A DNA stretch of 64,000 nt from NCBI GenBank assembly GCA_051362555.1, contig CM120644.1:24326534-24390533 (forward strand). The letters run 5' to 3'. This DNA is from Lingula anatina. Its lineage: Eukaryota; Animalia; Brachiopoda. The notes below the pieces were generated by a model that saw nothing but the letters and a program-made list of their open reading frames with translations, did not search any database and had not been told where the DNA came from. Each line of letters begins with the position of its first letter. Within the stretch, counting starts at the first letter, position 1. This document shows, piece after piece, positions 13,349 through 32,598 of this stretch. Both the position numbers and the translations under genes were made by a program.

Positions 13349-14162
13349 ATGGCAACAGCAAGGACATACACTGACTCTGACCGATGGAATTTCTGTTGCA
13401 TAAGCATTGTGACTGCAGAACATGCCTTGAAGGTCTTGCAAGATGTTCTTCAGATAGAACTTAAAACAAAGTATCCCAATCTATTTGACCTCAGCATGGG
13501 GTTGTTAAATGGGGTGCTTGGTGACAGAACTGTCGAGACTGTACTGTTTAGATTATCACCAAAGATATTTAATCGCCATCAACGGGAACAGCTGTATCCC
13601 ACTGGAAATCCCTCCACATCAGTAACTGTTGCTGACTTAGACATCACACTGACTGTGCTTTTGTTGAGGAACATTACCTTGTTGAACCCTTGTCCTCGGT
13701 TGAATGCAAGGGACAAACCCTCTGACACAAACACATCAAAAGAAGCCACCATAGGACGAATTAAAATGTATCGTGATATTGTGTATAATCATGTAAACAA
13801 GGCAGCGATCAGCGATGAAGATTTCAAAGCATATTTTTCAAAGCTTAAGTCCAATCTCTTGGTTCTTTTTAGTAGGTTCACAAATGAGGATGATGACGCC
13901 ATATTGTCTGAAACTCTTGATGCTGCGAGAAACCAGAGCATTCTTAAAAAATGGTACTATTATGACAAAGATGTAAAAGTTGAATTGATGCGTCTGAAAT
14001 CAACAATGGAGGAAACCCCAAAACTTGGGTTCCATATAGAACAGGTTCAAAGAAGAAATGAAGACACTGTTCTCAGAGAGGTGAGAAGTGAAACGCAGAG
14101 AACACATGATAAACTTAAGAAAATCGGATTGGCATTAGAACAAAGCGCTCCGATTACAGAAG
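13349..14162 (+). CDS. Exon: DZIP3-type HEPN domain plus helical/coiled segment (copy A)
   Basis: Motifs QLYP...[14 protein letters not shown]...[20 protein letters not shown] typical of HEPN_DZIP3 domains of invertebrate NLR-like proteins. Acceptor TTTCAG at 13313, donor G|GTACGT. Confidence 0.8.
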
Positions 14163-30653: not shown

Positions 30654-32598
30654 AAGTGTGTATTATACATTTACATCTCTAAAATACCTCCTATTTCTGT
30701 CAACCCTGTGTATATATTGAAGCACTTCTCGACGGACATCAGTCAATATGTTCCCTCTGGCAGTTCCATTATAGTATTTGTGTTCAGCCTCAAACCAAAG
30801 TCGACAATAGAAAGGCATGTATTTTTCTACGGGTTCGCATGCCGTTTATATTACTTTTACTTCTCTGCCACTTACTGAATCTGACAAAAATGTTCCTGTC
30901 TCTGTCAACTGAATTGCCCTCAGTTTTGAATGTTCATCTTTCCCGAGAGAAGCGTTATTGGAACCGAACACGCCGTGTCCAACAGCTTCGTTATATCTTG
31001 TTAGTTTTTCTACCTGTTTGCTGTGCTTGAGAAGTATTTAATAAAAGAAGTTCTAAGCCATAGGTTCTATAAAGTAAATGGCTATATTTGGGATGTGATT
31101 TATGTAGCTGTGACCTGGATTTGAATCTCGCCTGGATTTCAATCTTGCCTGTGACATGTATATGAACAAGTCCTTATTGTTCTTATTTGTGATTGGAGCC
31201 CATCAAACATTCAACAACTTGGAACAAAATATCACCATATGCTTGTAAAAAATGGCTGAGCATGCTTCTTTTCTCATCATGTGATCAGAACTCTGTTTGT
31301 ATACAGGTGCGCCAGGCAATTACAATGTAGAGGCCCGGGAGATCAAAGCCCGCCTGGACACCCCGACAGTGCAGGCGGTCTTAGATATGGGTTTCAGACG
31401 AGATACAGTGCGTCAGGCGATCGAACGTAGATTGAGGGATACTGGGGATGATTTTCCCAGTGCAGCGAGTTTACTAGATGCCATTTTGAATATTGAGGAT
31501 GAGATGAACCGGCAGACGGCGCAAGGTGCGGCGGCGATGGCAGTAATTTGCCAAGAGGAACCTGGTCATCAGACACTTAACCCAGCTCTGTCTGAAGTAC
31601 CAGCATCTGTGACAACCCAAAAAACATCTCGAACGCAGAATTCGGGTAATGTCTGAGCTAATAACACTCCGATATGATTACTTGCGGTTAGATTATATAA
31701 AATATACACAGGGTTTAATAAACTAGACCAAAAGTTCAGAAACATCGTTATTTTGAATGATTATGAAATAATAATAGGTGCTAAGGTAAATATTTTAACC
31801 AAATGTTTGTGGATGGATGACAACTGGCATACCTGAATCATCTTTACAAAATCAGAGCTATTCAGACTTGATGTAAAATTGTATTTCATTTTAGAGAAAC
31901 AATCTAAAAAAGACAATAAAAAGAAAAAGAAGAAGCAAGACGCTCCGATACCAAAGGGAAGTGATGACAAGGGTGAGCACTAGGCTTTTGATCTCTGTTT
32001 GATGTGTGTCAGTGTCCAGTGATATAAAAACTAATATCGAGGTCAAATTCATAATGCGGCGATCAGATACTTAGTAATCGTGATTGAGTTTGTACGTCTT
32101 AGGAAATAGGCATACATATAAAAAAGCTTAACTTTCTGAAATAAAACTCATTTTCTTTTTTTTTTCAACTAAACAGTTCAAATATCATTATCATTTGTAA
32201 ACTATCAATGCACTCGAATTGCAGCTACAGGACGACTGGTATATATCGTTTATGTTGTTTACAATAAGAAGCATCCTGAAGCACTTGATGAATGATTAAA
32301 AAAAGAAGGGCAAACGTGTTTATTTGTGTCCTTTCCCTTGACTGAATGTTATATCATTATCAACAACTGTTTTGAAGTAAGTGTTGCCAACCATATTTCA
32401 GAGACCAAGTCCTTGCTTGAGGAAAACAAAAGACTGAAAGAAGAGCGCATCTGTAAGATATGTATGGATGAAGAAGTTAGCGTGGTATTTCTGCCGTGCG
32501 GCCATCTTGTCGCCTGTGTCCAGTGTGCGCCTGCGTTGAGGAATTGCGCCATTTGCAGAACAGCTATCAAGGGCACGGTTAGGTCCATATTAAGTTAA
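13349..32598 (+). CDS. Chimeric NLR-IAP gene, copy A: HEPN(DZIP3-type)-CARD-NACHT(truncated)-LRR remnant-BIRx3-UBA-RING, ~1541 aa
   Basis: Phase-compatible GT-AG exons: 13349-14162, (14376-14444 optional), 21395-21526, 21860-21900, 22159-24589, 28460-28624, 29115-29270, 30094-30269, 30489-30516, 31307-31645, 31895-31972, 32402-32598. Sum 4626 nt with no internal stop; GCCATGG start context. The joining is predicted, not transcript-verified. Confidence 0.75.
14537..14840 (+). repeat. BEL/Pao 5' LTR
   Basis: TGTAAAGGAC...CCGCCACA; AATAAA at 14777. Confidence 0.95.
14943..20438 (+). pseudogene. BEL/Pao gag-pol polyprotein (gag with three Cys/His knuckles, protease LLDSGS, RT YVDD, RNase H FSDAS, integrase VDYFG/SDNGTNF), broken by two frameshifts
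   Basis: ORFs 14943-18329, 18316-19593 and 19485-20438 overlap consecutively in different frames. Shifts lie at an A-run (~18299-18306) and near 19470. Confidence 0.93.
20870..21172 (+). repeat. BEL/Pao 3' LTR
   Basis: Near-identical to 14537-14840, followed by the TTTAC duplication. Confidence 0.95.
22159..24589 (+). CDS. 2.4-kb exon: CARD, NACHT NBD/HD1, LRR-like remnant, linker, BIR1 and first half of BIR2 (copy A)
   Basis: CARD-like ...[19 protein letters not shown]...LA; Walker [10 protein letters not shown] (22663-22689); Walker [24 protein letters not shown]1 RLSTF...[18 protein letters not shown]...W...D.P...H....PDC; BIR2 RLATF..WP...[18 protein letters not shown]. Confidence 0.88.
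24828..27783 (+). mobile_element. Internally deleted Tx1/L1-clade LINE inserted in an (AAT)n microsatellite, copy A only
   Basis: 5' GGGGGGGAGAACAAGATGGCG. Frameshifted ORF1 (~25409-26417: [36 protein letters not shown]). Only the post-RT part of ORF2 remains ([40 protein letters not shown]). AATAAA at 27725 then (AAT)n. Copy B has an uninterrupted (AAT)n at ~56175-56207. Confidence 0.9.
27960..28230 (-). mobile_element. Old LINE 3'-end fragment (also ~56380-56650)
   Basis: [22 protein letters not shown]...[10 protein letters not shown] resembles the C-terminus of non-LTR retrotransposon ORF2. Boundaries approximate. Confidence 0.65.
28460..28624 (+). CDS. Exon: end of BIR2 ([17 protein letters not shown]) plus linker, copy A
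   Basis: TTTTAG acceptor, GTAAGC donor, phase 1-1. Confidence 0.88.
29115..29270 (+). CDS. Exon: first half of BIR3 ([10 protein letters not shown]...[10 protein letters not shown]), copy A
   Basis: CCCCATAG acceptor, GTAAGT donor. Confidence 0.9.
29587..30027. mobile_element. Harbinger-like foldback MITE, copy A only
   Basis: Long TIRs GGCTTCATTCACATGGAAAG... / ...CTTTCCATGTGAATGAAGCC with TTA duplication. Copy B empty site GTCTTAATAAGAGG (~57994). Confidence 0.9.
30094..30269 (+). CDS. Exon: second half of BIR3 ([32 protein letters not shown]), copy A
   Basis: Canonical type II BIR zinc ligands; AACAG acceptor, GTTAGC donor. Confidence 0.92.
31307..31645 (+). CDS. Exon: IAP-type UBA domain (VQAVLDMGF...[13 protein letters not shown]....LLDAIL), copy A
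   Basis: MGF loop and LL motif of IAP UBA domains; phase 1-1. Confidence 0.88.
32402..32598 (+). CDS. Terminal exon: IAP C3HC4 RING, copy A
   Basis: [47 protein letters not shown]...GTVRSILS*. Confidence 0.95.

Follow-up and report, generated by a model that had tools for sequence, protein, structure and literature searches.

A lineage-restricted, apparently undescribed NLR-IAP gene fusion predicted from the genome of the brachiopod Lingula anatina

Introduction

Vertebrate NAIP carries BIR and NACHT domains in one chain, in the order BIR3-NACHT-WHD-HD2-LRR (WHD, winged-helix domain; HD, helical domain; LRR, leucine-rich repeat). Passages of PMC13159474 present NAIP as gnathostome-specific, count 14 inhibitor of apoptosis proteins (IAPs) in the brachiopod Lingula anatina, and mention CARD and NACHT domains in IAPs of M. 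mercenaria or L. anatina, with the caution that an uncommon architecture can be an artefact. According to excerpts of PMC11797021, BIRs do not occur in invertebrate NLRs, and excerpts of two bivalve studies (PMC8917759, PMC7831173) report no NLR-IAP type of the kind considered here. We describe two copies of a gene that joins, in one reading frame, the damaged front part of an NLR to an IAP with three BIRs, a UBA and a C-terminal RING. They lie in a stretch of 64,000 nucleotides of L. anatina (assembly GCA_051362555.1, contig CM120644.1, positions 24,326,534 to 24,390,533, forward strand), hereafter the window, whose positions are counted from its first letter.

Both halves of the gene have close counterparts in the same species, where HEPN-CARD-NACHT-HD2-LRR NLRs and BIR3-UBA-RING IAPs are each encoded by genes of their own. 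The NLRs of the P0004, P0005 and P0003 group show the same N-terminal order and the same last LRR segment as the fusion; unlike it, they retain HD1, WHD, HD2 and LRRs and lack BIR and RING. The XIAP/DIAP2-like IAPs P0001, P0002 and P0012 have the three BIRs, UBA and C-terminal RING of the fusion and lack its NLR-derived leader, P0002 (a partial model) having a C2 domain. NAIP resembles the fusion in holding BIR and NACHT in one chain, but its order is the opposite, its NACHT and LRRs are intact and it has no RING or HEPN; the fusion is of independent origin. The IAPs with CARD or NACHT in the passages of PMC13159474 have these domain types in common with the fusion.

Other systems share single features. 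HEPN-bearing NLRs are reported from nine invertebrate taxa in part of PMC8662601, and N-terminal domain grafting in lophotrochozoan RIG-I-like receptors (RLRs) in part of PMC8998645. Among L. anatina gene models, P0069-P0072 carry the HEPN leader seen in the fusion, joined to a RIG-I-like helicase, a DEAD helicase, an IIGP GTPase or a CARD protein, with the Rx4-6H motif kept in 4/4; the module thus changes partners readily in this lineage. The HEPN-RLR and HEPN-IIGP models P0070-P0072 have the same leader as the fusion (44-48% over aa 1 to ~360); the fusion differs from them, and from RLR grafting, in that the join lies inside an exon, a broken NACHT is carried along and the acceptor is an IAP. 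An older receptor-like module stands in front of an IAP in the LRR-(Roc/COR-like)-BIR4-RING proteins P0066, from the sponge Corticium candelabrum, P0179 and P0169 (the COR call being weak, at E 1e-5, below the cut-off and in one protein). P0066 and P0179 are 39% identical over their full length, and this architecture is therefore old rather than young; unlike the fusion, these proteins have no NACHT, CARD or HEPN. Multi-BIR-FIIND-CARD proteins of Xenopus (P0075, P0076) and a five-BIR RING protein annotated in the bacterium Candidatus Endonucleobacter (P0100) were also seen.

Results

Layout of the two copies

The window consists of two collinear units of ~38 kb with patchwise identity of 77-98% and contains 0 N. 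Exon chains derived from the DNA and from protein homology to L. anatina models give open spliced frames in both units. Twelve exons with AG/GT ends make up copy 1 (13349-32598) and encode 1541 aa up to a single terminal stop, and copy 2 has 11 exons with AG/GT ends (51766-60170, without exon 2) that encode 1521 aa. An earlier note on this DNA had proposed a HEPN-CARD-NACHT front fused in frame to BIR3-UBA-RING in two tandem copies, with CARD, NACHT, BIR1 and part of BIR2 on one uninterrupted 2.4-kb exon. Both proposals hold; exon 5 (22159-24589; 53563-56005) is a single open exon of 2.4 kb in each copy. The parts of the two copies, all on the + strand, are as follows.

13349-14162, +: copy 1 exon 1, HEPN_DZIP3 (Pfam, aa 52-196) and a coiled-coil-like linker
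14376-14444, +: copy 1 exon 2, 69 nt in phase 1-1, with homology to P0004/P0005; copy 2 lacks it
21395-21526, +: copy 1 exon 3, Ser/Thr-rich linker
21860-21900, +: copy 1 exon 4, phase 1-0
22159-23232, +: copy 1 exon 5, NLR-derived part: CARD, nucleotide-binding domain (NBD) and damaged HD1, up to the large deletion point
23233-23448, +: remnant of the last NLR LRR region, after the ~443-aa in-frame loss
23449-23529, +: NLR-to-IAP junction zone, 27 codons, no assigned homolog
23530-24589, +: copy 1 exon 5, part derived from the IAP, with its N-terminal extension, BIR1 starting at 23914 and the opening portion of BIR2 starting at 24439
28460-30516, +: copy 1 exons 6-9 (28460-28624, 29115-29270, 30094-30269, 30489-30516), end of BIR2, and BIR3
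31307-31645, +: copy 1 exon 10, UBA, BIRC2/3-like
31895-32598, +: copy 1 exons 11 (31895-31972) and 12 (32402-32598), C-terminal RING and stop
51766-52588, +: copy 2 exon 1, HEPN_DZIP3, motif Arg replaced by His
52799-56005, +: copy 2 exons 3, 4 and chimeric exon 5 (53563-56005), deletion points and junction as in copy 1
56880-60170, +: copy 2 IAP exons 6-12, with a 21-nt in-frame loss after BIR2, a shifted exon 9 acceptor and several UBA changes

In copy 2 the position of the copy 1 exon 9 acceptor reads AT, and the exon is therefore taken to start after the AG at 58533-58534, 9 nt upstream of the equivalent site; this alternative AG restores the frame, and a frameshift in copy 2 at exon 9 is rejected. 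An acceptor AG just upstream of copy 1 exon 1 suggests a further, unseen 5' exon, and no exon matching the N-terminal extension of P0005 is present upstream in the window.

All domains named in the earlier note are called by Pfam: HEPN_DZIP3 (E 3e-39) in exon 1, CARD (6e-06), NACHT (1e-12) and BIR (6e-34, two stretches) in exon 5, UBA_BIRC2-3 (3e-09) in exon 10 and zf-C3HC4_3 (1e-15) in exon 12.

A NACHT with its switch removed

The NLR half is far from complete. Aligned with the intact P0003, copy 1 has lost 5, 11, 8, 443, 5 and 9 aa at 22408, 23089, 23152, 23233, 23299 and 23341, respectively; hypervariable sequence separates the 11- and 8-residue losses and makes their boundaries uncertain. 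All but the first of these losses recur in copy 2, and all six, together with the NLR-IAP junction, keep the frame. The ~443-aa loss removes the end of HD1, the winged helix, HD2 and most LRRs. The start of HD1 is lost separately, and the chain is cut within the PhhCW motif. Of the C-terminal LRR sensor array there remains a remnant of ~70 aa before the join, itself with the two further in-frame losses of 5 and 9 aa. The internal deletion of the NACHT region and the LRR remnant before the IAP were absent from the earlier note.

The NBD keeps Walker A (22663), Walker B (22918) and sensor 1 (23017). The end of the EIxG(L/F) strand and the PhhCW and winged-helix FxHxxxQEhxA motifs are missing here and present in 10/10 paralogs, while the Pfam HD2 match occurs only in P0003/P0004 and not in the fusion. 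P0003 aligns with NLRP3 across the lost elements, and the family profile matches NLRC4 best, a protein whose nucleotide site, according to a passage of PMC7583971, is closed off by WHD and HD2, which also control its activation. An intact NACHT switch is rejected, as these motifs are missing, and the broken NACHT is predicted to be no longer a ligand-gated switch. By the features tested, the fusion is neither an NLR nor a NAIP. The suggestion of the earlier note that the IAP replaces the LRRs as the sensor of a working NLR is thus weakened by the lack of EIxG(L/F), PhhCW, FxHxxxQEhxA and HD2.

Two of the deletion points are confirmed independently by RNA, since reads from paralogs break at 54503 and 54649 and continue into intact sequence. 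The deleted WHD/HD2/LRR segment has left no trace elsewhere in the window, and there is no frameshifted homology around the deletion points among the matches listed. AlphaFold gives models of low confidence both for the NLR part of the chimera and for an intact control (pLDDT 40 and 48), and the ESM Atlas gives only NACHT clusters, below 0.9, which are leads only.

In the HEPN exon, the Rx4-6H motif with a polar residue after the Arg, an HEPN RNase motif according to a section of PMC3710099, is kept in copy 1 (R142 to H148, from 13772; R-D..H) and in 5/6 Lingula relatives. Copy 2 has lost it through replacement of the Arg by His.

An IAP half of the XIAP/DIAP2 type

IAPs use BIR2 and BIR3 to bind caspases or IAP antagonists, which the RING ubiquitinates. 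In both copies of the fusion 3/3 BIRs have the CX2CX16HX6C zinc-ligand motif, followed by a UBA and by a C-terminal RING that ends the chain. The protein encoded by the RING exon is identical in the two copies, and the UBA of copy 2 has several non-conservative changes. The residue before the zinc-binding His, which we take to be the position of the groove for the IAP-binding motif (IBM), is Glu in BIR2 and BIR3 and Arg in BIR1. Lys, Arg, Leu or Val at the groove position blocks IBM binding according to a passage of PMC13159474. The best single-domain Protein Data Bank match of BIR3 is cIAP1 (72 bits), with a NAIP BIR at 51 bits. The fused protein has the sequence features of an XIAP/DIAP2-type IAP and is predicted to work like one.

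Parent families and novelty of the architecture

All 16 of the best matches of exon 5 (out of 65) are from L. anatina, at no more than 86% identity. Residues 1-709 match the L. anatina NLRs P0004 (LOC106172698) and P0005 (LOC106150941) at 61-65%, residues 708-782 correspond to these NLRs' last LRR region, and residues ~810-1541 match the IAPs P0002/P0012/P0001 at 67-78%, including the IAP N-terminal extension. In trees built from Lingula sequences only, the NBD has P0003/P0008/P0011 as its sister clade (support 94), P0001 is the sister of the IAP part (support 99), and the HEPN exons of the two copies are sisters of each other (support 99). Orthology to NAIP is rejected by domain order and by parentage, as each half groups within Lingula genes. 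The fusion point is in coding exon 1 of the IAP, ~130-155 codons before BIR1, and the IAP's own 5' end would therefore be gone. Ten DNA runs from 4 studies share 0.10-0.61 of the stretch, shares that unfused parent loci could also give. The same kind of search named no RNA run, a result that says nothing about expression.

The earlier note knew of no protein with this domain order, and none was found in the databases searched. In the 90% collection no protein combines NACHT and BIR (447-1425 aa, 65 matches; 1426-4070 aa, 3 matches), and with an intact NLR as query (718-2286 aa) none of the 13 matches among the best-sharing candidates does so. A HMMER search covered 1.84 billion representatives, of which the best 150 of 7457 matches were considered. 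Among 213 fetched proteins, 16 are NACHT-like, 194 have BIRs and one has both, the Anolis NAIP P0205, in the NAIP order. In the literature found, as far as consulted, no protein with NACHT upstream of BIR-RING is described. The parts of PMC12909245 and PMC10803261 drawn on hold nothing decisive on a NACHT-before-BIR order, and the NACHT-bearing IAPs mentioned in passages of PMC13159474 may bear on novelty. We regard the locus as a real, lineage-restricted NLR-IAP fusion that is apparently undescribed. Given that the NACHT has lost its switch and that expression is only putative, it is less exotic than the earlier note had it.

Divergence and selection between the copies

The copies differ by 178 coding substitutions, with 0 stops and 0 frameshifts, where a neutral expectation is ~6 stops (P 0.002 for none). 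The coding indels between them number three (9, 12 and 21 nt), and 3/3 keep the frame, while 43/51 non-coding indels in 9.1 kb of paired DNA are not multiples of three. The corresponding neutral expectation of up to ~20 frameshifts is only an upper bound, because many of the non-coding indels are homopolymer slips. Divergence is uneven along the gene: exon 5 differs at 18/2431 nt (0.7%) and by one 12-nt indel, exon 1 differs by 12.4% with its frame intact, and exons 6-12 differ by 2.5-7%. As the tract 21395-24589 is ~99% identical to 52799-56005 while flanking exons and introns differ by 3-12%, the centre was recently homogenised, which suggests recent gene conversion of the central tract.

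The halves of the gene have diverged from their relatives to different degrees. In the CARD, 11.0/47 otherwise invariant columns have changed, against 2-5 in paralogs. In the NBD, 9.9/95 have changed, against 1-3 in the three closest paralogs and 1-10 in all nine, and the stem of the NBD is 0.175 long against ~0.09 for the sister clade. From BIR2 to the RING, copy 1 has changed 4.4/228 invariant columns, where four close paralogs have changed 6-23 and copy 2 13.2. Between the copies, the ratio of replacement to silent change (pN/pS) is 0.74-0.87 in the NLR-derived part, 0.64-0.76 in HEPN, which is near neutral, and 0.62-0.73 in the whole IAP part, none of them significant. In the RING exon, one of 8 regions, there are 5 silent and 0 replacement changes (pN/pS 0, P < 0.001). 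By these comparisons constraint on the CARD and NBD is relaxed, and purifying selection is measurable on the RING and not on the NLR half, which further weakens the reading of the IAP as the sensor of an NLR.

RNA reads

Four RNA runs labelled as the same species were placed on 51600-56060, with 6-30% of each run read. This gave 461 reads, mostly derived from paralogs. A read that crosses the junction must span from 54864, where NLR homology ends, to ~54946, where IAP homology starts. Exon 3 has zero depth, and none of the predicted introns is seen as a joint among the 461 reads. Eleven reads leave exon 5 at its end, continue into sequence resembling exon 6 and probably come from a paralog, because one base differs from both copies.

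Mobile elements and repeats

A BEL/Pao retrotransposon, also absent from the earlier note, lies in copy 1.

14537-21172, +: BEL/Pao long terminal repeat (LTR) retrotransposon, 6.6 kb, copy 1 intron 2, sense to the gene

Its two LTRs are near-identical, with 2 substitutions and 1 indel over 306 nt, it is flanked by a 5-bp target-site duplication, and its coding region is spread over three open reading frames. The element could cut or restart the host transcript. Broken LINE-like fragments (zf-RVT match) occupy 25394-27514 in copy 1 intron 5 and are absent from copy 2. Reverse-transcriptase fragments are found at 41649-42263 (-) and 50667-51494 (+), the latter ending ~270 nt before the start codon of copy 2. 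At 1636-2529 a long inverted repeat with short internal tandem units resembles a non-autonomous DNA transposon.

Discussion

We lean, with modest conviction, to the explanation that this young gene fusion encodes an IAP ubiquitin ligase behind a passive, decaying HEPN-CARD-NBD leader. An NLR gene lacking the winged helix, HD2 and most LRRs would have been fused, with the frame kept, to an IAP gene within its first coding exon. The event would have removed the 5' end of the IAP gene, which would since be transcribed from the NLR promoter and exons. Translation would pass through the leader, given residues that drift within a frame which deletions and indels leave intact; the leader would be held in frame so that the IAP gets made, its amino acids mattering little. 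The selected function would be that of the IAP and its RING, with BIR2 and BIR3 binding caspases or IAP antagonists and the RING ubiquitinating them, and the likely gain would be IAP expression in the cells or conditions of the NLR. The fused locus would then have been tandemly duplicated, and its central tract homogenised later.

Several observations weigh against this explanation. Only 11/461 RNA reads are at least 99% alike, and 0/461 lie over 54878-55026, the NLR-IAP junction, although the animals sampled may lack the locus. Exon 5 taken alone is too homogenised for a test of its open frame (18 substitutions; P 0.07). If the fused exon was spread by conversion after the duplication, the signals of frame and RING constraint could date from separate parents. 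Copy 2 is damaged at 10/201 invariant IAP columns, and neither the BIR cores, the UBA nor the IAP part as a whole shows significant constraint between the copies. Some of the small deletions may come from a still-working NLR parent, and the long branches could reflect fast adaptive evolution.

Part of this evidence would fit a young, little-expressed or decaying rearrangement whose open frame is largely inherited from its parents and whose protein is now functionless. Such a locus would explain the missing junction reads and the scarcity of near-identical RNA, the fresh sense-strand LTR element in copy 1 intron 2, the damage to the UBA and after BIR2 in copy 2, a pN/pS near 1 over most of the gene and the lack of any database protein at 90% identity or more. 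It is harder to square with NACHT-destroying deletions and a junction that are all in frame, with 178 substitutions that brought no stop or frameshift, and with sister HEPN exons (support 99) that have diverged by 12% with their frame intact, and we consider it rather unlikely. An open leader also speaks against production of the IAP alone from a start inside exon 5, with the NLR remnant serving as upstream DNA or 5' untranslated region, since an untranslated leader should gather frameshifts and has none. In-frame ATGs do exist at aa 729, 758, 822 and 909, and two annotated Lingula IAPs (P0001, P0007) begin shortly ahead of BIR1, but no strong acceptor common to both copies lies within 23200-23930, and this arrangement seems highly improbable. 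It would take still more to make the fusion an assembly chimera: the junction is known from this assembly alone and no RNA read crosses it, but the same junctions recur in two copies that differ at 18 exon 5 sites and carry different insertions, in a window without N, and we give the idea almost no credence. That the copies are uncollapsed haplotypes rather than a tandem pair is very doubtful, and the fusion would stand regardless.

A more active role for the leader, adapted from the idea of the earlier note, has also to be weighed. Lacking WHD, HD2 and LRRs, a HEPN RNase or CARD might be restrained solely by the protein's own RING and BIRs, and attack by a pathogen or an IAP antagonist would release it. 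Walker A, Walker B and sensor 1 are kept, as is the Rx4-6H motif of copy 1, which part of PMC3710099 ties to RNase activity; the RING is conserved; breaking the WHD/HD2/LRR contacts makes NLRC4 constitutively active according to a passage of PMC7583971; and in L. anatina models the same HEPN leader occurs on NLRs as well as on RLR helicases and an IIGP GTPase. Yet HD1 is cut and the WHD is absent rather than merely unlatched, the CARD is the most eroded part, HEPN evolves near neutrality (0.64-0.76, not significant) with the motif Arg lost in copy 2, and no RNA read crosses the junction (0/461). We judge this distinctly unlikely. If it were true, the gene would be an animal 'dead-man's switch' born by gene fusion, in which attack on IAP function triggers defence. 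It would also be the first protein with NACHT upstream of an IAP, independent of NAIP, and a new coupling of apoptosis control to pathogen sensing.

The preferred explanation, an IAP with a decaying NLR leader, has a meaning of its own. A new domain architecture would have been caught while forming, with its parent families, deletion points and junction all readable. The gene also cautions against reading a working sensor of the NAIP kind into every invertebrate protein for which Pfam lists NACHT and BIR. With its frame held, its leader drifting and its RING conserved, it may illustrate how immune genes capture each other's 5' ends.

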